Below, in pieces: positions 14,118 to 24,660 of a stretch of DNA of 53,326 nucleotides. Where the stretch lies: NCBI GenBank assembly GCA_013334765.1, contig JAAXWW010000006.1:1-53326 (forward strand). Reading direction: 5' to 3'. Under the pieces are notes generated by a model. The model made no database searches. It saw only the letters and a list, made by a program, of their open reading frames with translations, and was not told the origin of the DNA. The DNA is from Candidatus Moraniibacteriota bacterium. Its GTDB lineage: Bacteria > Patescibacteriota > Minisyncoccia > Moranbacterales > UBA2206. The first letter of the stretch is position 1, and each line of letters begins with the position of its first letter. Made by a program: the position numbers and the translations under genes.

Positions 14118-14402
14118 GTGAAGGCTCTTAGGTCTCTTCTTAATAATAAGAAATTCAGTTCGCCGACGGTTTTGGATGACAAGACCGTTTTTTATGTATT
14201 CAAGAAAGTGATCAAAGAGGATTTCGGGAATATCGGTATCGAGAAATTCGTGCCGGACTATTTCGCTAAGGGAATACTTTTCATAAAACCGGAAAGCTCC
14301 GCCTGGGCGGCGGAGCTTTGGATGAACAAGAAACGGATTATCAGAAAAATAAACGAAGAGATTGGTGAAGACGCGCTGAGCGATATCAAAGCGAAGCAAT
14401 AA
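14118..14402 (+). CDS. DUF721/DciA-like protein
   Basis: GILFI...SSAWAAEL......II.KIN pattern; located after dnaN. Confidence 0.7.
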   Translation: MKALRSLLNNKKFSSPTVLDDKTVFYVFKKVIKEDFGNIGIEKFVPDYFAKGILFIKPESSAWAAELWMNKKRIIRKINEEIGEDALSDIKAKQ

Positions 14403-14423: not shown

Positions 14424-16949
14424 CTAATTGCTGACATCCGTATTGACGATTATCGAGTCGGAATCAGAATCCTCATTCACATCAGTGGCCTTCACTGATA
14501 TTTCCAATGAAGAATGCTTGTCACTGGAAGGGATTGTGTATGTGTATTCGAAAGATTTGTCTTGGCTTGATTTCAGTGTTAATCCGTTTATGCTGAGCGA
14601 TACTTTGGAGATATCATCTTTTGAAGATATGTCGGCCTTTATGTCGATCGAGCTTGAGGTTATGGTGTCCCCGTCTTCCGGGCTGTTTATCTGGACAGAC
14701 GGTTTTCCTTCATCATCAGAACTGCTTCCATCGCAGCTGTCAGGAGTGGAACTGGTCGAATAGCCGTTCGATTTCAGCCAATTCTTGACGGCACTGTCCC
14801 AGTTTTCGAATTGGGGATCGTCTTTTGGGTTTTTCGGCGCATCGCCGCGCGGATCATTCCTGTCGACATAATAAAGCAGGGAATGGGCATCGGTGAATTT
14901 CTTTTTCACCCGGTCTTTCCCATTGGGGCATGATCCGTCAGGAATGCAGTATTTCTTGCTGGAAATCTTGCAGACTTTGATTTCTTTCTTGACATTCAAT
15001 TTTCCGTCCAAGGCATCTTTGCCAGTGTTTTCGACTTCATATTTCGGGAAATCCTCGATAGGGGAATTCTGAAGGGCGGTATTCATGAACGCCCGCCAAA
15101 TCGGGGCGGCGACATATATTCCGTCTGAGCCGGCTTTCAATGCGGTGTTATTATTGTTTCCGGCCCATACGCCAGCCACTAGAGACGGCGTGTAGCCCAT
15201 TGTCCAACCATCCCGCCATTCATTAGTGGTTCCGGTTTTGGCGGCTACTGGGCGGTTAGGGAAACTCAAGGGGTTATTATCTCCGAAAACCGGAGCGCGC
15301 AGGCTGTTGGTTGAAAGGATATAGTCAAGCATCGAAACGTATTTCTCATCGATTACCCTGTTTCCGGGCTTGTCCTTGTATTGTTCTAGAACGGTTCCCT
15401 TGCTGTCTTCGACGCGAAGGATTGCGGTCTTGTCATGATGGACACCTCCGGTTGCGAATGTCCCATAGGCATTCACATGATCAAGCAGTTTGACCTCGCC
15501 TCCTCCGAGCACGAGGGATAACCCGTAGTCATCAGGTTTGTTCAGAGTAGTGATACCCATCTGGTGGGCGATATTGATCGAGTCTTTTATGCCTGCCAGA
15601 TAGAGGGTCTTGACTGCGGGGACATTGAGCGATCTTGCCAGCGTGTCTTTCATTTGCAGCAGTCCGCTGTTCTTGCCGTCATAATTCTTCGGATCATATG
15701 TTTTCCCGTCCTCAGTGCTGAAATTGGTGTCCACGTCCCAGATATTGGTTTCGGGAGTGTAGCCCTTGGAAAAAGCGGTCAGATAGACATAGGGCTTGAA
15801 GGATGATCCCGGTTGGCGGTCGCGGATAGCGACATTGACCTGCCCGTCGATGGATTTGTCGAAGTAGTCTTTTGAACCGACCATGGCGAGGATCTGTCCG
15901 GTTTTGGGATCCATGGCGACCAGAGCCGCATTGGAAGCGTTGTATTTGACGTTGTTAGCGGCGCCTTCTTTTACGGCTTTTTCCGCGGCCTGCTGCTTGT
16001 TCCAATCGAGGGTGGTATATGCTTTCAATCCTCCCTGTTCCACTGCCTGTTCGCCGTATCTGTTTTCCAGGTATTCTTTCACATACATGACGAAATGCGG
16101 CGCGGATATGTTTTCAGAGGGCGCTTTTATTTTCGAAAGGACGTCAACAGCCTTGGCTTCATCAGCTTGTTCCTGGGTGATATACCCAAGCTTCGCCATC
16201 TGGTTGAGCGCATATTGCTGGCGTCCGATGAGGGCATCGGTGTGGTTTCCGTAAGGGGAATAATAGGACGGAGCTTGCGGAAGGGACGCGAGGAGGGCTG
16301 ATTCGTCAAGGGACAATTCCTCGGCATGCTGTCCGAAAAACGTCTGGGCTGCTGCTTCGATGCCGTAGGCGTTGGATCCGTAGGGTATCTCATTGAGATA
16401 CATGCCGAGGATATCGTTTTTCGAGAATTTCTGTTCCAGCTCGATAGCCAGGATAACCTCTTTTATTTTCCTGATGAGTGTCCGCTCTGATGTCAGGATG
16501 GAATTCTTTATGAGCTGCTGGGTTATGGTAGACGCTCCCTGTTTGGCTCCGCGATGGAAAATATCGACGAGAGCCGAACGGAAAATGGAAGTTATCTTTA
16601 TCCCGTGATGCAGATAGAAGTCCTGGTCTTCCAGTGAGATGGTGGCGTATTTGACGGCTTCGGGCATCTGGGCGAAATCTATCTGGGTTCTTTTCTCTTC
16701 GCCATGGATGTCATAGAGCAGGTGCTGCCCGGTACGGTCATATATCTTAGTGGACTCGATGATTTTGCGACTGCTGACCGATCCGGGGCTGGGAAGGTCT
16801 TTCCATGCCCAGGCGAATACGCCGACGACGAAAACGAACCCGGCTATCGCCAGAATGCCGAGATATTTGAATATTTTCTTCCAATTCCAGTTAAAGCGGG
16901 ATCTTCTCGCGGGCCTCCGGAAGTCCCTAGGTGAGAATGCTTGCCACAT
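14424..16949 (-). CDS. Class A penicillin-binding protein (transglycosylase/transpeptidase) with C-terminal Ig-like domain
   Basis: EDQDFY.H.G, GASTITQQL, RKIKE; SSFK, SLN, KTGT motifs. Confidence 0.96.
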   Translation of the reverse strand: MWQAFSPRDFRRPARRSRFNWNWKKIFKYLGILAIAGFVFVVGVFAWAWKDLPSPGSVSSRKIIESTKIYDRTGQHLLYDIHGEEKRTQIDFAQMPEAVKYATISLEDQDFYLHHGIKITSIFRSALVDIFHRGAKQGASTITQQLIKNSILTSERTLIRKIKEVILAIELEQKFSKNDILGMYLNEIPYGSNAYGIEAAAQTFFGQHAEELSLDESALLASLPQAPSYYSPYGNHTDALIGRQQYALNQMAKLGYITQEQADEAKAVDVLSKIKAPSENISAPHFVMYVKEYLENRYGEQAVEQGGLKAYTTLDWNKQQAAEKAVKEGAANNVKYNASNAALVAMDPKTGQILAMVGSKDYFDKSIDGQVNVAIRDRQPGSSFKPYVYLTAFSKGYTPETNIWDVDTNFSTEDGKTYDPKNYDGKNSGLLQMKDTLARSLNVPAVKTLYLAGIKDSINIAHQMGITTLNKPDDYGLSLVLGGGEVKLLDHVNAYGTFATGGVHHDKTAILRVEDSKGTVLEQYKDKPGNRVIDEKYVSMLDYILSTNSLRAPVFGDNNPLSFPNRPVAAKTGTTNEWRDGWTMGYTPSLVAGVWAGNNNNTALKAGSDGIYVAAPIWRAFMNTALQNSPIEDFPKYEVENTGKDALDGKLNVKKEIKVCKISSKKYCIPDGSCPNGKDRVKKKFTDAHSLLYYVDRNDPRGDAPKNPKDDPQFENWDSAVKNWLKSNGYSTSSTPDSCDGSSSDDEGKPSVQINSPEDGDTITSSSIDIKADISSKDDISKVSLSINGLTLKSSQDKSFEYTYTIPSSDKHSSLEISVKATDVNEDSDSDSIIVNTDVSN

Positions 16950-17079
16950 AAAATAAAAGATATGTCAATTAAACAAATTTGTTCTAGTTTAACTGATTTT
17001 GGGGAAATGTTCAAGGATGTGACAAATGATGCCGAGCAGGTCATTTGTCGGCGATCCTATGCTTTTTCAATGCGCGTCT

Positions 17080-18282
17080 TTATTTTTTTTGCAGTTCCTC
17101 TTTGATAACAGATATATCTTTCTTTATCTGGTCTCCTATTATATAGAGAATCTCATCCTTTTTGAGCTTGCGGATTGATTTTCGGATAGCTGTCAGTTCG
17201 TCATTTATTATTCTGGCAACTGCGCCTTCTTTTTTCAATTCTTCCAGCATCATTTTTGCCACGCTTCCGGCTTTCTTGTCCCGAGTGAATATTTTTCTGA
17301 GAGACGGCCTGCTGATGGCCTTGTCATAAATTATATAAGAATCGAATAAGGGGGCTATCTTCCGGGTCAGGTCTCTTATGATGCCTTCTTTGCGGTAATA
17401 GGAAAGCCTTATGACGGCTTTCAGATGCCTCCCTTTGAATTTTAAGCGCAATGTCTTGGCGGCCTCGGAAATGCTTTTTATTTCATGAGCATAATCAAGC
17501 ACGACCGTATATCCGTTCTTGTCGAATAGATTGAATCTTCCCGGAACCGATAGCACTGACTTCTTTTTCAATATTTCCGGCCCTATCTTCAATGATTTCA
17601 ATATGCCGGTTATGGCTATAAGGTTCGATTCCGAAATTTCCGATCGGATTCCAGCAGGAAAGCTTGCTGAGGATATTTTCAGCAGCAAGGTGTCATTGAG
17701 GTAGATGCAATCGTTTTTCATGTAACACTTGCCTATCTGATCGGAGGAGCTATGAAACAGTCTTTTATTGTATGCGACTACGGACAAATCATTGCGATTT
17801 TTCCTCAATTTTGAAATCGCCTTATATGAAACGCTGTTTTTCTTATCGCCGGCATATATGAAGGCGGTCCCTCCTTTTTTGAGGTTTCCGATCAGCTTCA
17901 GCTTTCTTTCGAGCAGGTCTTTCTGATCCTTTATTCTTTCGCCGTCGATGTGGTCCCAATAGACATTGGTCAGTATGGCCAGATCGATATTGTTTTTAGC
18001 GAAAGACTCCCGGATGTTTTTCCCGGAACTGAAGCTGCTTTCCAATATGACATAGTCGAAACGGCGGGCTTCGTCGCTGCGTACCTCATTCAATGCGCAG
18101 ACATTAGCGGAAGTCTTGAATTTCTTCAGGAAGTATTCATTGTCCTTGATAATCTTCCCATTCTTAAATATGCCCTCGCTGCTTATGCAAAGCACTTTCT
18201 TTCCAATTGAGAGAAGCGCGTTATTGAGGGTTAACGAAAGGGTGGTTTTTCCTTTTGTGCCGGTGATAAGGATGACCTTCAT
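17080..18282 (-). CDS. Mur-ligase-fold protein resembling the cyanophycin synthetase C-terminal (M) domain
   Basis: ITGTKGKTT P-loop, VILESS, LTNV..DH, PGRFNLF, LDYAH. Confidence 0.8.
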   Translation of the reverse strand: MKVILITGTKGKTTLSLTLNNALLSIGKKVLCISSEGIFKNGKIIKDNEYFLKKFKTSANVCALNEVRSDEARRFDYVILESSFSSGKNIRESFAKNNIDLAILTNVYWDHIDGERIKDQKDLLERKLKLIGNLKKGGTAFIYAGDKKNSVSYKAISKLRKNRNDLSVVAYNKRLFHSSSDQIGKCYMKNDCIYLNDTLLLKISSASFPAGIRSEISESNLIAITGILKSLKIGPEILKKKSVLSVPGRFNLFDKNGYTVVLDYAHEIKSISEAAKTLRLKFKGRHLKAVIRLSYYRKEGIIRDLTRKIAPLFDSYIIYDKAISRPSLRKIFTRDKKAGSVAKMMLEELKKEGAVARIINDELTAIRKSIRKLKKDEILYIIGDQIKKDISVIKEELQKK

Positions 18283-18285
18283 CTT

Positions 18286-19239
18286 TTATTTATCGCTTAA
18301 TATCGTCAATGAATCCAAAAGTCCATCGATAAAGCTCTTATGATTTCTCATATCATCGCTCGGAAATCCTATCTGATCGTTGAGCTCGAATACGTAGGGA
18401 CCGTTTCTTGTCATTCCGAAGTCTATCGAATAAACCGGCTTTTGGAATTTTTCATCTACTATCGTTTTTATCTTTTCAGCCACATCCATGATTTCCTGCG
18501 GTATTTTTTCCAAAGGAACTTCTTTTATCGATCCGCCTTGGGAAGCGTTAGCAAGGTAGCTTCCTTCCCGGGGAGTCCTTATGTGGGACAGGACTGTTTT
18601 TCCATTGACTATCACGACCCTGAGATCATGCCTTCCATTGGAAAGACCCTCTATCCCGCATGATGTATCGATGAAATCCTGAATGACATATTCGTTGCCA
18701 GGGTCTAAGTTTGTTTTTCTCAATTCGGAAACTTTGTCTATGATGATCCCTTTACCTCCTAGCCCCTTGGCAGGCTTCAATACGGCAAGCTCGTCTTCCC
18801 TGAATCCATTCAGAACTTCTTGGAATTTATCGGTTTTTTTGAGTTCAAAGCTTTTCGGCATGAATTGCCCGAAATATTCATACATCTTGTTCTTGTCATT
18901 GCAAAGAATTTTGAAATCAGAACAGTTAAGGACCTTGCCGTCCATTTCTTTTGCGGGAAAACTGATCCCCCCGCTCCTGTCATATATAGCATCTGCGATT
19001 ATCGTTCCTTGCGTTTTCGCGAATTCATTTCCATTGAAAAAAGCAGGATCGTTAAAGGAGAGACCTCCTCGATAGGCTTCCGGCCCGCTTGCCAGATACA
19101 TATCGAAGCCAAGATCGCGCCCTTTCTCGAAAAAATAACGGTATACGTTTCTTTTTTTGCCGAACTTAAAAAAAGGGTCATTGCCGGGCCTTTCCTTCTT
19201 GAAATACATTACTATTTTTTTCCTTGGTGATATTCGCAT
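18286..19239 (-). CDS. ATP-grasp ligase (RimK/YheC-like)
   Basis: DK, VLKP..GLGGKGI, VIQDFI, DLRV, LANASQGG, SIDF, VFELN. Confidence 0.85.
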   Translation of the reverse strand: MRISPRKKIVMYFKKERPGNDPFFKFGKKRNVYRYFFEKGRDLGFDMYLASGPEAYRGGLSFNDPAFFNGNEFAKTQGTIIADAIYDRSGGISFPAKEMDGKVLNCSDFKILCNDKNKMYEYFGQFMPKSFELKKTDKFQEVLNGFREDELAVLKPAKGLGGKGIIIDKVSELRKTNLDPGNEYVIQDFIDTSCGIEGLSNGRHDLRVVIVNGKTVLSHIRTPREGSYLANASQGGSIKEVPLEKIPQEIMDVAEKIKTIVDEKFQKPVYSIDFGMTRNGPYVFELNDQIGFPSDDMRNHKSFIDGLLDSLTILSDK

Positions 19240-20129
19240 AGATAATCAGCTAAGACGCTTGTTTCATCGGATACCTTTTCATCATAAGTGAATGCGGGGG
19301 AGCGGTTGACTTCGAATATGAACGGATCGTTGTTTTTATCGACAACCACATCGACCCCGGCAACCTGTATGTTCGTAAGTTTCGCCGCAGCGACGGCTAC
19401 GCTTTTTATAAAAGGGGGAACCTTGGATAAATCCATAAATTCTTCGGAAGCGCCGAGATGCACGTTGTTCCTGAATTCTTCCTTCTTATCCGGCCTTTCT
19501 CTCTTTATGACGCAGGCCGCCTCATCGCCTAATACGAGGACTCGGTAATCGAAATCATTAGGGATGAATTCCTGCAGTATTATTTCCTCCTCGGGGTTTT
19601 TTCTTGTTATTTCCAGGGCCTCCTCCTTGTTCTTGGCCAGAAACACCCCTAGTCCTTTTCTGCTTTGTGAAAATTTGACAACCATGGGGAGTCCTAGGAA
19701 TTTTTCAGCGCGGTTCATGGAAAAGCTGTCGTATTGAGAAGAAAAATATGTTTTCGGAACGGGAATGCCGGCGCTTGAAAGAAAAAACATCTGGCTTAAT
19801 TTTCCAGGATCATTGCTATTTTCGTAAAGCTTGTCAATGAAAAGAATTCCGTTCTTCTTGGCGATATTGGATAATATCGAGGCCAAGCTCCGTTTCTTTC
19901 CTACCCGCCTGAAAAAAACGGCTTTGTATCGCGATAAAGGCTTCTTGTCTATGAAAGCCTCGCTAGCCTCATTGCTTATGAACAGCTCTATTTTTTCCAT
20001 GCTGGATATTTCCGTTTCTATGCCTTTTTCGGTCAGTTTCCGGATCAGCATGTCTATGCCCTTCTGCGTCTCCGGACTTGATTCCTGTTTGCTTTTCAAT
20101 ATGAGCAGCATATGTTTTGATTTTGACAA
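19212..20129 (-). CDS. RimK-family ATP-grasp ligase
   Basis: GIPVPKT, PMVVK...RKGLGV, LQEFI, DYRVLVLG, FRNNVHLG, AGVDV, FEVN.SP. Confidence 0.88.
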   Translation of the reverse strand: MSKSKHMLLILKSKQESSPETQKGIDMLIRKLTEKGIETEISSMEKIELFISNEASEAFIDKKPLSRYKAVFFRRVGKKRSLASILSNIAKKNGILFIDKLYENSNDPGKLSQMFFLSSAGIPVPKTYFSSQYDSFSMNRAEKFLGLPMVVKFSQSRKGLGVFLAKNKEEALEITRKNPEEEIILQEFIPNDFDYRVLVLGDEAACVIKRERPDKKEEFRNNVHLGASEEFMDLSKVPPFIKSVAVAAAKLTNIQVAGVDVVVDKNNDPFIFEVNRSPAFTYDEKVSDETSVLADYLCEYHQGKK

Positions 20130-20130
20130 A

Positions 20131-21093
20131 TTAGCAATCCACTTTTCTTTTCATGACCAAAATGAATTCGATGATATTCTTTATGACATTTCTTGTCTTG
20201 CCGTATGTCGGATTGTAATGAATATACAAATCCGGTTTGCCGTTTATTTCTATGATGCTGAAATGCTGACCCTCCGGCCTTTTCGTTATATCGTCGCACA
20301 TCAGGTCGATTCCGACGAGATAATTTTCTGTCAGTTTCCCGGCTTTTGCGCACAAAGAGGCTATGTTGTCATTTATGATGTCCGTCACGTCCCTTGTCTC
20401 TCCTCCTTCGGCTAGGCAAGAGTTGTTCTTGATGAATATCCGCGTTCCTTTTTCAGGTGTGCTTCCAAGCGATGAACCTTGTTTTGACAGGATGCTGTCG
20501 AGAACGTTATCCCGGACGGTTTCATTGCAGATATCTTTCTGTTTCCTGGCTATCAGTTCGTCAACTGTCGATTTGCCGTCTCCTAGGATGCTTGGCGGTA
20601 TCATTTCAAGCACGCCGATAGCCTTGTTTCTGAGCATCAGTACCCGGAACTCTTTTCCGAAAACCATTTCCTGTGCTATGAGGCGGGGAAAGATATTGAT
20701 TTTTTCTGTCAGTATTCTTTTCGCTTCGCTTATATCCGGGATATTTACGAAAACTCCGCGGCTATTCGATCCGTCAGAATCTTTTATGACGATCGGATAA
20801 CTGAGTTGGGACAGCTTTTCATCGGCAGGGTTCTTTTTGAAAGTCTTCTTATAGAAGCATACGGTTTTGGGCGTCGGGATGCCTTCTTTTTCAAGGATGA
20901 AATAAGTCAGATCTTTGAATGCCGTCAATTCTTTTCCGACAAGGGAGCTTCTCGTTATTTTGAATTTCCTCGAAACGAATATCTTTTCTCCATCTATCCT
21001 GATATAAAAGCATCCTCTTTCGGGGATTATCTTTTCTACGGAGCCGCCCATTTCTTCGACGACTTTCTTGATTAAGGCTGAATTTCTGATCAT
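20131..21093 (-). CDS. ATP-grasp ligase resembling the cyanophycin synthetase G domain / GshAB ATP-grasp
   Basis: YPIVIK.S.GS.SRGV, G.EFRVL, P..I.GDGKSTV.ELI, GG...DVTD, GIDL, IIEIN..P.L..H..P..GK.RNV. Confidence 0.82.
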   Translation of the reverse strand: MIRNSALIKKVVEEMGGSVEKIIPERGCFYIRIDGEKIFVSRKFKITRSSLVGKELTAFKDLTYFILEKEGIPTPKTVCFYKKTFKKNPADEKLSQLSYPIVIKDSDGSNSRGVFVNIPDISEAKRILTEKINIFPRLIAQEMVFGKEFRVLMLRNKAIGVLEMIPPSILGDGKSTVDELIARKQKDICNETVRDNVLDSILSKQGSSLGSTPEKGTRIFIKNNSCLAEGGETRDVTDIINDNIASLCAKAGKLTENYLVGIDLMCDDITKRPEGQHFSIIEINGKPDLYIHYNPTYGKTRNVIKNIIEFILVMKRKVDC

Positions 21094-21095
21094 TA

Positions 21096-22541
21096 TTATT
21101 TGCTTGTGTCTATTAGGAAATTCTTCAGATCCCTTCTTCCGATGAGCAAGGGATATTTCAGCCCATCGCGGTTGGCGATCGACATCTTGGAAGTCATGTT
21201 CATTTTGTCGATAATGATCGGAATCGATATCTCGGCCCTATAGGTGGCCCCATGAGAGGAGAATGTCTTAGCTACGCCTACGATATCCGGATGCTTTTCC
21301 AGTTCTTTCCATGTCTCGTTCTTGCTGAGCTCCCGTATTTCTTCTTCGCTGAGGACTTGATCGAGATGAAAATCTTCCCAGATTCTGACGGCCTCCCTGT
21401 ATCCCAGGCTTATGGCTAGGTTCTTATCTATAGCGGAAATGCCGGCTCCTGTATCTATGCGAGCCTCCACTTCGATTTCCTTTCCTTCTTTTCCGATGAG
21501 TTTCACTTTTTCCACTGTTCCAATGACTTTCTTTCCGGAAATCTCCTCCAGTTCCTCCTCGATTTCCCCTCCGAAAAGATCCATCCCGACGCGCACGCCG
21601 CGTTCGCGGGTCTTGATCTTGAGGCTTCTTATTTTTTCGAGCCTCTCCTTGAGTCCTGACAGGTTGGCTATCTGGATAGAAAGCCCCGGGCGGGCATTGA
21701 GCTCCAGGATGACTGGGCCTTTTTCCTTGTCGATCGCGATGTCGGCGCCCAGGAACCCGAGTCCCGAGACGCTTTGCGCGTCGACTGCGAGGCGCAGCAT
21801 GTCTTTCCAATAGGGAAGTTTCAGTCCTGAAAGCAGCAGCCTTGTCCCTGGAACGTATTCTATGAGCTTGCTTTTCCCGACAACGGCGCTGGTCGTGGTC
21901 CCGGTTGCCATGTCGATGCCGACCCCGACAGCTCCCTGCTGCAGGTTGGCTTTTCCGCTGGATTCCCTGGTCGGAAGGCGCAGCATCGCCATCACTGGGA
22001 TCTTGTTGAAGACGATGATGCGGATATCCGGAATCCCTTTATAGGCATAGGGTTTGAAAAGTTTCAGCAGCTGGAGCCTTTCTTCGAAAAAAGCCGTGTC
22101 ATGTATGCCGGAAAGGGAGAAGGATCCGTCGATGATGTTCCTGACATGATTTTTGAGATCGTCGATTGTCACTAGCGAGCGATCGGCTTTTATCCAGGCG
22201 TCGTCGCGTCCCTTCTTTTTGCCATATACGACGATGATCCCTTCACCGCCGAATCCTCGGTTCGGCTTCAGCACGAAGCTCGCGGGCAATTTTTGCCAAT
22301 CGAAATTATCCAGATCCTGATAGGAGCATATCTTGGCGATCAGTCCTGGAACGGAAATATTGTTTTTCTTGAGGATCCTTTTGCAAAGAAGCTTGTCGTC
22401 CGCGATGCGCTTGGCGCGCTTCCGGTTGAACGGCCGAATAAACTCAAGATTCCTTGAGTTCATGCCGAGTATTTTCCTGCTTTTCCTGAAAAAATCAAAC
22501 ACGCTTAGTATCCGGCAAAACATGCGATCAGTCTGTCGCAT
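21096..22541 (-). CDS. Alpha-L-glutamate ligase-like (RimK-related) ATP-grasp fused to a retropepsin-like aspartyl protease domain
   Basis: LGMN.RN, DDKL, VLKP..G.GG.GI, DIRII, AMLRLPT..S.GKANL.QG, LELNARPGL.IQIAN; C-terminal ARIDTGA ... YPLLIGR; start codon uncertain. Confidence 0.88.
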   Translation of the reverse strand: MRQTDRMFCRILSVFDFFRKSRKILGMNSRNLEFIRPFNRKRAKRIADDKLLCKRILKKNNISVPGLIAKICSYQDLDNFDWQKLPASFVLKPNRGFGGEGIIVVYGKKKGRDDAWIKADRSLVTIDDLKNHVRNIIDGSFSLSGIHDTAFFEERLQLLKLFKPYAYKGIPDIRIIVFNKIPVMAMLRLPTRESSGKANLQQGAVGVGIDMATGTTTSAVVGKSKLIEYVPGTRLLLSGLKLPYWKDMLRLAVDAQSVSGLGFLGADIAIDKEKGPVILELNARPGLSIQIANLSGLKERLEKIRSLKIKTRERGVRVGMDLFGGEIEEELEEISGKKVIGTVEKVKLIGKEGKEIEVEARIDTGAGISAIDKNLAISLGYREAVRIWEDFHLDQVLSEEEIRELSKNETWKELEKHPDIVGVAKTFSSHGATYRAEISIPIIIDKMNMTSKMSIANRDGLKYPLLIGRRDLKNFLIDTSK

Positions 22542-22553
22542 GCCAAGCGCTTG

Positions 22554-23213
22554 TTACATATTCTTTATTATTTCCCTGAATCTGACGTATTCCGTGATGC
22601 GAAGACCCGTCCATTTCCCGATCAGGAGATTCAGCGGGACAGTCAGGATGACTATCCAGGGATAGGTGATGATGAAATTGATAAGCAGCGGCCAACTGGC
22701 TATGTAGAAGCCGAGGATCGAAATGATGAGCGTTTCCGCTGCCAGCATGAAAGCGACGCGGTCTCCTTTTTCGATCTGCACGGTGATGAATTTCTCGACG
22801 AGAGTGATCATGATAAGGATAGGGAAAATGGAAACGGAAGCCAATCCTGTCCTTCTGAGTCCGCCACCGATAGTCAGCATGAAAAGGATCGCGATCGCGA
22901 CAATCGTGAGCATGATGGCGACGCGGGGAAGATAGAGCAGGCGGAGCGATTTAAGCAAGAGGCGCGAAAGCATTCCGACCAGAAGGATCGTCACAAAAAT
23001 GGCTATGCCGTATTTGACGCCGTTGGTGGCAAGGAAGGCGAAGGTGACTATGAGAGGAGTATATACTCCGAAAGCCTTGACTCCGACCACTTGGCGGAGA
23101 AGGGCGATGAAGGTTGCGATAATGGGGAGCATCAAGAGAAGCACAACGGTGTCGAAGGGAACCCCTTCCCGGAGAAAGAAATCGATAACGGGATTCAGGT
23201 GCTGTATGTTCAT
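22554..23213 (-). CDS. 7TM membrane protein (type found fused to inactive transglutaminases)
   Basis: LLMLP, RQVVG.KAFG.YTP, LPRVA, IFPI.I...VEKF, IGKWTGLR..EY.RF; start taken at ATG 23213 just after the ruvC stop. Confidence 0.8.
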   Translation of the reverse strand: MNIQHLNPVIDFFLREGVPFDTVVLLLMLPIIATFIALLRQVVGVKAFGVYTPLIVTFAFLATNGVKYGIAIFVTILLVGMLSRLLLKSLRLLYLPRVAIMLTIVAIAILFMLTIGGGLRRTGLASVSIFPILIMITLVEKFITVQIEKGDRVAFMLAAETLIISILGFYIASWPLLINFIITYPWIVILTVPLNLLIGKWTGLRITEYVRFREIIKNM

Positions 23214-23220
23214 GGTTTTT

Positions 23221-23715
23221 TCAAGTTGATTTAATGCTTGATAGTTTCCTGCTGTGGATGTGGCAGACCGCAATCGCAAGAGCATCTGCCGTATCATCGG
23301 GTTTCGGAACGGATTTGAGGCCGAGAATGTTCTTGGTCATCAGCTGGACTTGGGCTTTTTCCGCTTTGCCATAGCCGGTTATGGCCTGCTTCACTTGAAG
23401 CGGCGTGTAACTTGAAACCTTAACATTATTTCGTTCAAGTGTCAATAGGACAGTCCCGCGAGCCTGAGCTACCTGGATGACGGTTTTCTGGTTCTTGAAG
23501 AAGAAAAGGCTTTCCACGGCTGCTTCCTGCGGATGGTATTTTTCTATTATCTGAGCGATATCGTTCGATATTTCCAGGAGCCTGTCCTCATCGCGGCGGT
23601 CTTTTTCGGTACTGATGTGGCCGTATGCCAGGGCTTGGATTTTTCCTGAAGATTCTTCGATGACGGCCCATCCGGTGGTGGCTGTTCCTGGGTCGATGCC
23701 TAGCACTCGCAACAT
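23221..23715 (-). CDS. ruvC: Holliday junction resolvase RuvC
   Basis: RVLGIDPG, AVESLFF, QARG, VKQAITGYGKAEK, DDTADALA; ORF-track extension to 23757 is translated repeat. Confidence 0.96.
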   Translation of the reverse strand: MLRVLGIDPGTATTGWAVIEESSGKIQALAYGHISTEKDRRDEDRLLEISNDIAQIIEKYHPQEAAVESLFFFKNQKTVIQVAQARGTVLLTLERNNVKVSSYTPLQVKQAITGYGKAEKAQVQLMTKNILGLKSVPKPDDTADALAIAVCHIHSRKLSSIKST

Positions 23716-23820
23716 GGGGCATGAAACATGGGGCATGAAACATGGAACATGGAACACCGAGTTTGGAACATGAGCATGCTACGCGTCGGGAGTTCTATGC
23801 TATGTGTTTATGCTTCATGA
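23713..23820. repeat. CATGRRR heptamer array with degenerate inverted partner
   Basis: catgggg-catgaaa-catgggg-catgaaa-catggaa-catggaa (23713-23754); reverse-oriented units near 23795-23820. Confidence 0.8.
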
Positions 23821-24537
23821 CTAAAGATTATCGTATATCTCGTCCACGTCGTCGTGGTCGTCAAGCGTTTCAAGAAGTTTTTCATAATCGAGACGCGTGT
23901 CAGCGTCGATCTCGGCGATTGTCTTGGGCAGATAGCCGAGACTTGCTTCCAGCACCTTTATGCCATTGGCAACAACGTTTTCCCGAATGGAGTTGAGCTT
24001 GTCCGGTTCCGTGAAAATGAGAAGCGAACCGTCTTCGAGCTTGGTGTCTTTGGCTCCGGCATCGATTGCCACGAGCTCGATTTCATCAGGATCTTTTCCT
24101 TCCAAGTCGGCATAGATGATCCCGACGGAATCGAAATTCCACATGGAACTGCCCTTTTCTCCCATTTTGCCTCCGGATTTGGTGAGGAGTGTCTTTATTT
24201 CCGAAACGGCCCGATTGCGGTTGTCGGTCATGGATTTTATGATCATCATGACTCCGCCTGGACCCATTCCTTCATATACGAGCTCTTCTATTTCGGCGCC
24301 TTTGAGTTCGCCGGTCCCGCGCTTTATGGCGCGTTCGATGTTTTCCTTGGGCATATTGACTGAGCGCGCCCTCTCAATGGCAAGCCTCAGCTGAAAATTG
24401 GCATCCGGGTTCCCGCCTCCGCCGTCCCTGGCTGCTATGGTTATGAGTTTGCCGAATTTGGTGAAGACTTTTCCTCGTTTTGCGTCCTGAAGGCCTTTTT
24501 TATGCTTGATTCCTGCCCAATGCGAGTGTCCGGACAT
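23821..24537 (-). CDS. yebC: YebC/PmpR family protein
   Basis: MSGHSHWAGIKHKKG, NMPKENIERAI, YEG.GPGG, TDNRNR, DDVDEIYDN. Confidence 0.95.
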   Translation of the reverse strand: MSGHSHWAGIKHKKGLQDAKRGKVFTKFGKLITIAARDGGGGNPDANFQLRLAIERARSVNMPKENIERAIKRGTGELKGAEIEELVYEGMGPGGVMMIIKSMTDNRNRAVSEIKTLLTKSGGKMGEKGSSMWNFDSVGIIYADLEGKDPDEIELVAIDAGAKDTKLEDGSLLIFTEPDKLNSIRENVVANGIKVLEASLGYLPKTIAEIDADTRLDYEKLLETLDDHDDVDEIYDNL

Positions 24538-24660
24538 AGTTTTCTCTTACGGTTGGTTACAATACCACTCTAGCATTTTAGCAAGCTGATTTCAAGGAAA
24601 AACAAAACCATCCTGGAAAGGATGGCAAGCTGTTTGTGGGCTGTAATTGAACGGCGCGCC

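Follow-up and report, generated by a model that had tools for sequence, protein, structure and literature searches.

The six co-directional genes described here, from a very small bacterium of symbiotic type, appear to be a single allele of a bipartite locus, widely distributed in this lineage of the candidate phyla radiation, in which a core resembling the Rlo and RimK-RimB systems is combined with tailoring ligases; we give this reading a probability of about 0.5. The first two genes, encoding a 7TM protein and a ligase-protease fusion, are fixed, whereas the remaining four belong to a cassette that varies from strain to strain and is seen here in one of its versions. Gene content, catalytic motifs, conservation pattern, and cassette boundaries are all matters of observation. 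The window, the whole stretch of 53,326 nt that was analyzed (Candidatus Moraniibacteriota contig JAAXWW010000006.1), has the following features:

22554..23213, minus strand: 7TM gene (219 aa; longest open reading frame, 22554-23297)
21096..22541, minus strand: ligase-protease fusion gene
About 21618-22481, minus strand: RloC-like ATP-grasp domain of the fusion protein (ATPgrasp_ST, PF14397, 228.8 bits)
About 21111-21539, minus strand: RloA/RimB-like retropepsin domain of the fusion protein (PF05618, Zn_protease, 31.6 bits; RloA3 model, 36.6 bits)
20131..21093, minus strand: G-like ATP-grasp gene
19212..20129, minus strand: RimK-like ATP-grasp gene
18286..19239, minus strand: third ATP-grasp gene (AG3)
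17080..18282, minus strand: Mur-like ligase gene
17015..21445: variable cassette; one end lies within the protease-coding part of the fusion gene, the other a short way upstream of the PBP gene
14424..16949, minus strand: class A PBP gene (TIGR02074, 519.9 bits), the downstream flank conserved within the order
23221..24537, minus strand: ruvC (23221-23757) and yebC (23821-24537), the conserved, co-directional upstream flank
14293..14319, minus strand: terminator-like hairpin after the PBP gene (consensus scan)
24607-24626: second terminator-like hairpin (consensus scan)
24567-24595: promoter-like site before yebC (consensus scan)

The preliminary description had recognized a block in which a protease and a membrane protein stand together with several amide-forming ligases, and this holds: six minus-strand open reading frames occupy 17080-23213, the gaps from the 7TM gene to the Mur-like gene are 12, 2, 1, -28 (an overlap), and 3 nt, with 130 nt more to the PBP gene, and a consensus scan places strong minus-strand terminator-like sites only outside the block. 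We favor the 7TM start at 23213 because orthologs in the order are 214 to 238 aa long. The arrangement is not a chance one, since the order of the flanking genes is repeated in all 40 other fetched genomes of the order. The reported lack of a cyanophycinase is also correct, as a profile search of the 969-kb genome (rated 100% complete) finds no Peptidase_S51 match.

The core is constant. The fusion gene is present in 41/41 genomes of the order and 98/301 genomes of a phylum sample, with the 7TM gene directly upstream in 40/40 fetched loci of the order and in eight of nine phylum loci examined, the ninth (L222) beginning at a contig end; the locus reads ruvC, 7TM gene, fusion gene, and cassette, with the class A PBP gene next within the order. 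The 7TM protein matches 7TM_transglut (PF14402, 108.9 bits) and covers positions 313-508 of the 508 in the RloB model NF052267, and by these matches it is RloB-like but without the extracytoplasmic (inactive transglutaminase) domain, at whose place the 7TM proteins of other phylum members have a PKD domain. Its C-terminal tail is conserved (LGKWTGLRxxEYxRF), its AF2 model has a pLDDT of 90.5, and no solved transporter resembling it was found. The fusion protein scores 296.3 bits against TIGR02291 (rimK_rel_E_lig), just under the cut-off of 314.2, and 42.7 bits against TIGR00768, the model for RimK proper (cut-off, 143.4); its C-terminal domain matches PDB 9g58 and 9g59, and an alignment of 70 sequences shows no variation at K92, E280, N282, or D363-T364-G365.

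To delimit the cassette, the window was compared by blastn with L080 and L081, the loci closest to it. Identity is 82 to 84% in the flanks and 66 to 70% in the interior, where some stretches have no match, the break points (21445 and 17015/17017) are common to both comparisons, and the GC content drops by 7 to 10 points (0.42 to 0.44, versus 0.50 to 0.53 in the flanks). The exchanged cassette takes in the protease domain itself: the fusion protein and its L080 counterpart are 95% identical in the ATP-grasp domain and 44% in the protease domain, a decoupling seen in 10 of the 33 pairs whose ATP-grasp domains share 85% identity or more. By hand tally, 38 of the 39 order loci with cassette sequence have at least one further ATP-grasp, with Mur-like genes in 4, GT4 in 7, MATCAP-like in 5, GNAT in 3, and YdjC in 3, and metagenome loci are similarly varied. 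The GT4 and YdjC genes of other cassettes hint at a sugar-containing acceptor, which lies beyond our model. The Mur-like gene is of a rare type (1/401 class genomes) and is absent from L080, the closest relative (flanking proteins 91 to 93% identical), where a GNAT fused to AG3 takes its position. All four ligase types occur together in only one other locus (L131, another order), whose Mur-like protein is 28% identical to that of the window. The earlier notion of a fixed six-gene system is thus not sustained.

Loci for surface polysaccharides (O antigen, capsule) have fixed flanks, sharp break points, lower GC, and enzymes swapped between strains. The locus here shares the conserved flanks, common break points, low GC, and enzyme replacement, although this lineage exchanges mainly amide ligases and peptidases rather than glycosyltransferases, and the likeness is one of genetic pattern alone, the surface location of the product being only putative.

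Co-folding of the fusion and 7TM proteins gave a score of 0.63 (runs of 0.64, 0.63, and 0.63; best of three controls, 0.00), which expresses the model's confidence and is not a measurement; among solved complexes 58 of 80 score that high, as do 2 of 110 mismatched pairs (rough counts, own alignments used). The runs share at least 81% of contacts, with partner pLDDT of at least 75, and the result is not memory of a solved complex, because the 7TM profile finds no PDB chain at E≤1. The predicted interface brings 7TM residues 199-216, including five of that protein's nine invariant residues, against fusion residues 17-33 and 287-296, beside the Mg-binding E280 and N282. The ligase would therefore, in this model, dock on the 7TM protein at its conserved C-terminal tail in the cytoplasm, with the last residues of the tail (218-219) placed against the ligase loop that follows the Mg-binding motif.

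The position of those last residues invites the suggestion that the ligases add, and the proteases remove, C-terminal amino acid tails as a regulatory mark, in the manner of RimK and RimB on S6, the target perhaps being the 7TM protein itself or a protein bound to it. RimK-like and LysX/RimK-fold enzymes are of classes acting on protein C termini, MATCAP/QEGLA-type carboxypeptidases recur in cassettes and in G142 are fused to the core protein, and the 7TM ortholog of L224 ends in an encoded Glu run. We nonetheless find such tagging distinctly unlikely: the terminal 7TM residues vary, and in 59 of 60 sequences they are mostly basic rather than acidic; a regulatory tag would not usually show strain-to-strain exchange or low GC; and GT4, YdjC, and GNAT genes are ill-suited to a protein tail.

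The same three protein families adjoin in rloABC of Pseudomonas aeruginosa, encoding a retropepsin (RloA), a 7TM/inactive transglutaminase protein (RloB), and an ATP-grasp (RloC); genetics ties the three to one process, and a triple rloA protease mutant is rescued by deletion of rloB or rloC (PMC12239564). RloB is stated to be 96% proteobacterial, and the part of that paper drawn on here makes no mention of the window's lineage (PMC12239564). The 7TM match extends to the very end of the RloB model, and the top match of the fusion's ATP-grasp is the RloC-type TIGR02291. Unlike in rloABC, the 7TM protein has no extracytoplasmic domain, a variable cassette of further ligases follows, and the protease is fused to the ligase C terminus, hence without a signal peptide. 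Because the Pseudomonas RloA proteases are secreted and the protease domain here sits on a cytoplasmic ligase, the Rlo analogy is incomplete and RimK/RimB fits better. RimB, which shortens poly-Glu, also stimulates RimK, and a natural RimB-RimK hybrid (RimBK) exists (PMC11957791). In both cases an ATP-grasp relative of alpha-L-glutamate ligases is paired with a retropepsin-like endopeptidase, and natural fusions are known, although the protease comes first in RimBK and the ligase first in the window. The window ligase also differs in belonging to the RloC-type family, not RimK proper, and in having a membrane partner, and nothing points to ribosomal protein S6 as its target.

Catalytic motifs are kept in all proteins of the block, and its ligases differ from ordinary Ddl and Mur enzymes, the housekeeping MurC, MurL-MurD, MurE, MurF, Ddl, and MurG being encoded elsewhere in the genome. 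The outer two ligases had been called CphA-like, and profile and PDB comparisons agree. The G-like protein is an ATP-grasp that stands alone and has the CphA1 G domain as its closest relative: it scores 164 bits against the cyanophycin synthetase model TIGR02068 (cut-off, 850) over positions 202-471, with no CphA1 N domain, its best PDB match is CphA1 (7wac, 111.7 bits), and all 37 sequences compared keep K104, E282, and N284. The Mur-like protein, closest to the CphA1 M domain, consists of middle and C-terminal domains only (Mur_ligase_M, PF08245, from residue 6, plus Mur_ligase_C), without the UDP-binding N-terminal domain; its 109 bits against TIGR02068 (positions 481-860; cut-off, 850) exceed its 70.5 bits against the MurE model (cut-off, 257.3), its nearest solved relative is CphA1 (36 bits; PDB 7wac, 7lg5, and 7lgn are named for CphA1), and its P-loop GTKGKT and NxxxDHxD motif are invariant. 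An exhaustive search among 1.84 billion found 39 representatives of its family at E≤1e-30, the next relatives being C-terminal parts of 845- to 909-aa proteins. Between these two lie the RimK-like protein (PF08443, 96.3 bits; TIGR00768, 106.6 bits, cut-off 143.4; best PDB match RimK 7qys, 75.9 bits) and AG3, which has only weak Pfam ATP-grasp matches and no close solved relative by sequence (19.9 bits at best). The AF2 model of AG3 (pLDDT, 94.0) resembles LysX 5k2m, RimK 5zk6, and GshB 1gsa (Foldseek, E about 1e-14), which predicts a LysX/RimK/GshB-like fold, and K155, D273, E285, and N287 are invariant in 25 sequences.

With CphA1 as nearest solved relative of both outer ligases, these could be the G and M halves of a split cyanophycin synthetase that, with helpers, makes a cyanophycin-like storage polymer; the long relatives of the Mur-like family agree with this, as do near-full-length CphA1-like genes directly after the fusion gene in two phylum genomes (G066 and G278; 722 and 772 bits on TIGR02068, cut-off 850) and one Mur-like and one G-like ortholog that, from matching size, apparently share a 9411-nt contig. 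The two genes are, however, non-adjacent here and seldom paired. Of 36 metagenome loci in which the interval is complete, 3 have a Mur-like neighbor beside the G-like gene, which does not support halves that need each other; three of the four order loci with a Mur-like gene have no G-like gene (L185, L196, and L201), and in the fourth (L209) none is seen in the partial cassette before the contig end. The closest relative has no Mur-like gene at all, the N domain is missing, the scores are far under the family cut-off, and no cyanophycinase was found in five other genomes with CphA-like genes either. Nor is recent fission indicated, since the G-like and Mur-like proteins are only 24 to 29% identical to the fused forms. 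We rate a split synthetase the least probable of the readings weighed here, and a storage purpose is less likely because the core has proteases and a membrane protein as partners where storage would call for a cyanophycinase.

Of 62 informative metagenome loci, 46 have a G-like gene adjoining the fusion gene, and ∼50%-identical G-like genes stand alone in unrelated contexts in 16 loci, so a soluble substrate is possible. The G-like protein also scores 79 bits against N-acetylglutaminylglutamine synthetase, in the ATP-grasp part of that enzyme, and Rlo has been linked to osmotic tolerance (PMC12239564). With the GNAT-AG3 fusion of L080, these points suggest cytoplasmic synthesis of short N-capped peptides (N-acetylglutaminylglutamine-type compatible solutes) or of a peptide antibiotic, in which the GNAT of sister cassettes would take part and the 7TM protein would be a sensor or exporter. 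A solute pathway, though, needs neither two kinds of peptidase nor a docking membrane protein, and replacing the ligase set between strains is unexpected for a housekeeping osmolyte; the prospect seems slim.

In 36 of 40 order loci the gene after the cassette is a co-directional class A PBP gene (the remaining four have a contig end or no match), an adjacency that may be plain synteny, being found in one of nine phylum loci outside the order (G142) and gone in eight. It would also suit peptidoglycan tailoring, in which the cassette ligases, working on precursors that are cytoplasmic or lipid-linked, add amino acids to free carboxylates or amines of stem peptides or make an interpeptide bridge, and the neighboring PBP then cross-links these precursors; cassette variety would then be peptidoglycan chemotype variety. 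Stem peptides are built by ATP-grasp and Mur-type ligase classes, the enterococcal D-aspartate ligase is an ATP-grasp enzyme, and a glycan-linked acceptor would suit GT4 and YdjC. Shape and ampicillin phenotypes of Pseudomonas rlo mutants point the same way (PMC12239564). Set against these are the missing UDP-binding domain of the Mur-like protein, the complete housekeeping set elsewhere, and no obvious role for a poly-Glu-type ligase-retropepsin fusion or MATCAP-like carboxypeptidases, and on balance we consider peptidoglycan tailoring unlikely.

The best reading is that a membrane-docked core makes and trims a peptide or poly-amino acid, which strain-specific ligases tailor. Of the assembly line first proposed, this retains the multi-ligase, protease, and membrane block and drops the fixed six genes and the obligate split synthetase. 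What the enzymes make, in which order they act, and where the product goes are our inference. By analogy with RimK/RimB, the RloC-like ligase, predicted to sit on the conserved cytoplasmic tail of the 7TM protein, would build an alpha-linked acidic peptide or poly-amino acid, and the fusion's own protease domain would trim it. The tailoring enzymes probably arrive as a cassette swapped by horizontal exchange, and the four ligases of this version may add amino acids to backbone or side-chain carboxylates. The outcome would be a strain-specific, possibly branched, ribosome-independent peptide, which the 7TM partner would then hold or hand toward the envelope side, export being a guess.

Six open reading frames, all on the minus strand, lie between positions 17080 and 23297 of the window, separated by gaps of 12, 2, 1, and 3 nt and by one 28-nt overlap, with ruvC and yebC upstream of the block and a class A PBP gene downstream after 130 nt. 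The first of the six encodes a 7TM protein, and because its orthologs in the window's order are 214 to 238 aa long, the start at 23213 assigned in the preliminary description is likely correct. Strong minus-strand terminator-like hairpins occur at only two positions according to consensus scans, and the genes from yebC through the PBP gene may form a single transcription unit. Ten contigs totaling 969 kb make up the genome, which is rated 100% complete.

Sites identified by consensus scan
14293-14319, minus strand: strong terminator-like hairpin, 3' of the PBP gene
24567-24595: promoter-like site
24607-24626, minus strand: strong terminator-like hairpin, before yebC

Two of the six genes form a constant core. 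The second gene, which joins a ligase to a protease and is referred to here as the fusion gene, occurs in all 41 order genomes (54 to 74% identity) and in 98 of the 301 genomes sampled across the phylum (E ≤ 1e-15). In the regions fetched from all 40 other genomes of the order, the 7TM gene is directly upstream of the fusion gene at every locus, and RuvC is upstream in 36. This recurring arrangement rules out that the six genes are unrelated neighbors. The core design is kept outside the order, where some 7TM proteins are longer and carry an N-terminal PKD domain, and where the fusion protein in some cases (as in G142, 800 aa) has an added QEGLA/MATCAP-type peptidase.

Domain content of the six proteins, in gene order (all minus strand)
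Protein 1, 7TM protein: 7TM half of the 7TM_transglut/RloB family (PF14402, 108.9 bits)
Protein 2, fusion protein: RloC-type ATP-grasp joined to an RloA/RimB-type retropepsin
Protein 3, G-like protein: closest to the cyanophycin synthetase G domain (TIGR02068, 164 bits; PDB 7wac, 111.7 bits)
Protein 4, RimK-like protein (19212-20129): best PDB match RimK 7qys, 75.9 bits
Protein 5, third ATP-grasp (AG3): no close solved relative by sequence; LysX/RimK/glutathione-synthetase-like ATP-grasp fold in the model (pLDDT 94.0)
Protein 6, Mur-like protein: middle and C-terminal Mur ligase domains only

The three families of the Rlo system stand side by side here too, with the 7TM and fusion genes adjacent in 40/40 order loci, but in altered form. 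RloB combines an inactive transglutaminase domain with seven transmembrane helices, whereas the window protein is the 7TM half only: it matches the RloB model solely from position 313 to the last position, 508 (95.2 bits, where the cut-off is 900), and the extracytoplasmic (inactive transglutaminase) domain is missing. RloA is a secreted retropepsin-like protease with a signal peptide, whereas the retropepsin domain here is fused behind a cytoplasmic ATP-grasp, and therefore has no N-terminal signal peptide. The best match of the fusion protein is TIGR02291 (alpha-L-glutamate ligase-like protein), covering model positions 9 to 294 of 317 at 296.3 bits, below the curated cut-off of 314.2, and its C-terminal domain matches PDB 9g58/9g59. 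The RimK-like protein scores 106.6 bits with TIGR00768 (cut-off, 143.4) and 96.3 bits with the Pfam RimK domain (cut-off, 21). The preliminary description had five of the six proteins as predicted amide-forming enzymes, and the catalytic residues are kept: the ATP-binding Lys and the Mg-binding E-x-N are invariant in the family alignments of the G-like, AG3, and fusion proteins, as are the DTG of the protease domain and the P-loop and NxxxDHxD of the Mur-like family. For the RimK-like protein, an EVN stretch is aligned in a pairwise, rather than family, alignment to RimK 7qys.

The ligases also differ from ordinary Ddl and Mur enzymes. MurC to MurF have three domains, including an N-terminal UDP-binding domain, whereas the Mur-like protein opens with its P-loop (PF08245 begins at residue 6); its MurE score of 70.5 bits falls short of the family cut-off (257.3) and is lower than its score with the cyanophycin synthetase model (109 bits, positions 481 to 860). 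Housekeeping genes are located on other contigs, including MurC (447.9 bits), MurE (401.4 bits), a MurL-MurD fusion, MurG, MurF (286.8 bits, at the cut-off of 288.6), and, adjacent to Ddl (355 bits), another MurF-like gene; with true MurC, MurD, MurE, MurF, and Ddl encoded elsewhere, the cassette ligases are not the housekeeping genes. The fusion on contig C9 of the same genome (L234:1853-4366) is an 837-aa protein joining a MurL-like UDP-MurNAc-L-Ala-L-Glu epimerase (339.8 bits; cut-off, 700) to MurD (263.6 bits), which suggests that stem-peptide D-Glu is made via the MurD2/MurL route. The class A PBP gene is downstream of the core in 36 of the 40 order loci (the remaining four have a contig end or no match), but adjacent to it in only one of nine loci outside the order. 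Peptidoglycan tailoring is one reading of a locus so placed, and we regard it as unlikely.

The genes that separate the fusion gene from the PBP gene, which we refer to as the cassette, vary from genome to genome, and the interval ranges from 1.1 to 7.9 kb within the order. Contents were tallied by hand over the 39 order loci holding cassette sequence.

Cassette genes in 39 loci of the order
At least one further ATP-grasp: 38/39 (the exception, L189, has a weak ATP-grasp_3 match only)
GT4 glycosyltransferase: 7/39
G-like, at least 50% identity: 5/39
MATCAP-like peptidase: 5/39
Mur-like: 4/39 (L185, L196, L201, L209)
GNAT: 3/39
YdjC: 3/39
Methyltransferase: 1/39

RimK-DUF3541 fusions and several families without a Pfam match are also present. 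One of the latter, a soluble family of ∼570 to 650 aa whose members are 27 to 43% identical to each other, recurs in cassettes (L173:4073-6028, L176:5517-7337, L187:7048-8910, L147:11466-13364, L203:8241-10100, L206:4403-6121, and L115:6929-8284, the last a 451-aa ORF); a second unassigned family, of ∼260 aa, occurs at L108, L112, and L189. A search with the G-like family yielded 80 metagenome loci of comparable variety, with the fusion gene near the G-like gene in 46. Among these 46, the G-like gene begins no more than 41 nt after the fusion gene in 39, is 1.6 to 1.9 kb downstream in five, and is inverted between the fusion and PBP genes in two (L126 and L159). At 16 of the 80 loci there is at least 1.5 kb of sequence upstream of the G-like gene without a fusion gene, and 18 are too short to tell. 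Stand-alone G-like genes, ∼45 to 53% identical to that of the window, are found without core genes at L118-L120, L129, L139-L141, L143-L145, L148-L150, L153, L156, and L157; the contexts inspected have no common theme and include AcrB-type transporters, so these genes are probably in other phyla.

Of the six genes, the Mur-like one is the rarest. Fourteen orthologs (45 to 68% identity) were found among 5.8 billion clustered proteins, and an exhaustive search of 1.84 billion gave 39 representatives at E ≤ 1e-30; in that search, the stand-alone family of ∼420 aa has as its next relatives the C-terminal parts of 845- to 909-aa proteins, which fits the likeness to the M domain. Of the 401 class genomes searched, only the window's own has a match at E ≤ 1e-20, and a search of 300 other phylum genomes found no relative above 31% identity. 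A profile scan of genome contigs with the Mur-like alignment gave, among the matches listed, at most 32% identity for partial matches and 27% over the full length; a scan of metagenome contigs with this alignment found no ortholog among the contigs covered, even though the orthologs of JGI origin fit its patterns. The Mur-like gene is present in three (L089, L093, L131) of the 36 metagenome loci with a complete G-like-to-PBP interval; the Pfam scan of these intervals covered 44 of 53 ORFs, leaving out those of the near-duplicates L082, L106, and L107, the frameshifted ORFs of L100, and a single ORF of 72 aa. Two overlapping ORFs (155 and 174 aa) take the place of an intact AG3 ortholog at L100:9535-10478, through either a frameshift or an assembly error.

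These distributions bear on the proposal that the locus carries the CphA-like domains of cyanophycin synthetase on separate genes. The likeness of the two proteins to the G and M domains stands, but an obligate pairing is not supported. CphA1, which makes a beta-Asp-Arg polymer, unites its N, G, and M domains in a single chain, whereas here the G-like and Mur-like proteins reach 164 and 109 bits against the TIGR02068 cut-off of 850, and the N region (model positions 1 to 201) has no match at the window locus. CphA1 holds G and M together, whereas three of the four order loci with a Mur-like gene have no G-like gene. One Mur-like and one G-like ortholog come from contigs of equal length (9411 nt) and so probably share a contig. 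At two other loci in the phylum, in genomes G066 (L221:7482-10040) and G278 (L222:960-3635), a cyanophycin-synthetase-like gene directly follows the fusion gene; the products are 852 or 891 aa long and score 722 and 772 bits over nearly the full-length model, below the cut-off. Shorter forms carrying the G part (543 to 564 aa) occur in G174 and G207. CphA-family ligases are therefore regular partners of the core. Identity to the fused forms is just 24 to 29% for both the G-like and the Mur-like protein of the window, and nothing in the sequences indicates a recent fission of CphA. The reported absence of a cyanophycinase is confirmed, with no Peptidase_S51 found in the 969-kb genome; nor is there a match in five genomes with such CphA-like genes, including G066 and G278 (the latter only 76% complete). 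A split cyanophycin synthetase serving storage is, of the readings considered, the one to which we give least credence.

Comparison with the closest locus (L080) suggests that the cassette is exchanged as a unit. YebC, RuvC, the 7TM protein, and PBP are 91 to 93% identical between the two, and nucleotide identity changes abruptly at the cassette.

Nucleotide identity of the window to L080
27143-21445: 83.6%
21143-18303: 70.2%
18303-17015 (Mur-like gene): no match
17015-11138: 82.1%

L080 carries a GNAT domain fused to AG3 in place of the Mur-like gene, the second closest locus (L081) has both break points as in L080, and the GC content of the four cassette genes is 0.42 to 0.44 versus 0.50 to 0.53 in the flanks. 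The left break point falls at the DTG motif of the fusion gene, such that the ATP-grasp part of the fusion protein is 94.5% identical to that of L080 and the protease part 44.3%; protease parts 75 to 78% identical to the window's are found in more distant loci. Protease domains fall at 60% identity into clusters of 32, 12, 10, and 4, and among 33 pairs whose ligase domains are at least 85% identical, 10 show a protease domain decoupled from the ligase domain. The protease domain therefore behaves as part of the exchangeable unit.

Co-folding supports binding of the fusion protein to the 7TM protein. Using our own alignments (70 and 60 sequences), three runs scored 0.64, 0.63, and 0.63, versus 0.00 for the best of three controls, with at least 81% contact agreement and partner pLDDT of at least 75; of 80 solved complexes 58 attain that mark, as do 2 of 110 mismatched pairs, counts that are rough because own alignments were used. 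The 7TM profile has no match at E ≤ 1 among PDB chains, so the result does not simply reproduce a solved complex. In the predicted interface, 7TM residues 199-216 and 218-219 contact residues 17-33 and 287-296 of the ligase, and the second of these ligase stretches follows the Mg-binding E280/N282. The 7TM residues involved are those of the conserved tail, LGKWTGLRxxEYxRF, which holds five of the nine invariant residues of the protein. One ortholog of 60 (L224:3708-4391, in G207) ends, after the tail motif, in an encoded glutamate run (…SEEEEEEEREEE), which curiously recalls the poly-Glu on which RimK and RimB act. Foldseek gave no match to the 7TM model at E ≤ 0.001, and relatives suggested by VIA, the best being Cas10d (Z 8.6, 109 residues, rmsd 2.9) and others being Rnf/Nqr subunits (Z 7 to 8.5), are within the noise stated for helical proteins.

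What might such a locus make? The retropepsin-like endopeptidase RimB both shortens poly-Glu and stimulates RimK, and the two are also known as a natural hybrid, RimB-RimK (PMC11957791). The core looks like a membrane-docked version of such a ligase-protease pair, and the cassette like a set of tailoring ligases giving a strain-specific product. Tagging of protein tails, as in the RimK/RimB pair it resembles, seems to us quite unlikely. In Pseudomonas, the Rlo trio affects osmotic tolerance and sensitivity to antibiotics, along with biofilm and cell shape. A P. aeruginosa triple rloA protease mutant is rescued by loss of rloB or rloC; the ligase and membrane protein therefore make or place something that the proteases must remove (PMC12239564). 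We infer that the product is delivered to the envelope, because the core has a membrane partner, because of how cassettes are exchanged, and because sister cassettes carry GT4, YdjC, and GNAT genes; a small soluble peptide is a reading that we hold to be very improbable. A bolder and tentative reading is that the locus makes an envelope polymer built of peptide and differing between strains, comparable in function to teichoic acids or O-antigens, which the docked ligase-protease core would build, the amide ligases and acetyl-, methyl-, and glycosyltransferases of the cassette would decorate, and lateral exchange of cassettes under pressure from phages or host cells would diversify. We put this joint proposal at roughly one chance in five.

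The trio of families, RimK/RimB, and CphA1 are already known. The defining paper of these Pfam families is reportedly that of Iyer et al. in 2009, which may treat related neighborhoods. In the literature searched, we found no paper tying these families to this phylum, and neither a lineage-wide conserved ligase-protease fusion of this type, a regular partnership of such a core with CphA-family ligases, an exchangeable cassette that includes a protease domain, nor a predicted 7TM tail-docking interface. The Rlo core is tied here, across the phylum, to cyanophycin-synthetase-like and RimK-like ligases and has a specific predicted docking site, which together provide testable ideas on Rlo product and mechanism; if the envelope-polymer reading is true, the CphA-like association would point to a poly-amino acid as the Rlo product in Pseudomonas and Vibrio. 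The cassettes are also a source of uncharacterized amide ligases for unusual peptides or poly-amino acids. Present in every genome of an order with genomes of ∼1 Mb, and with a freely exchanged enzyme cassette, the locus is a candidate basis for differences in surface or envelope between strains of the candidate phyla radiation.
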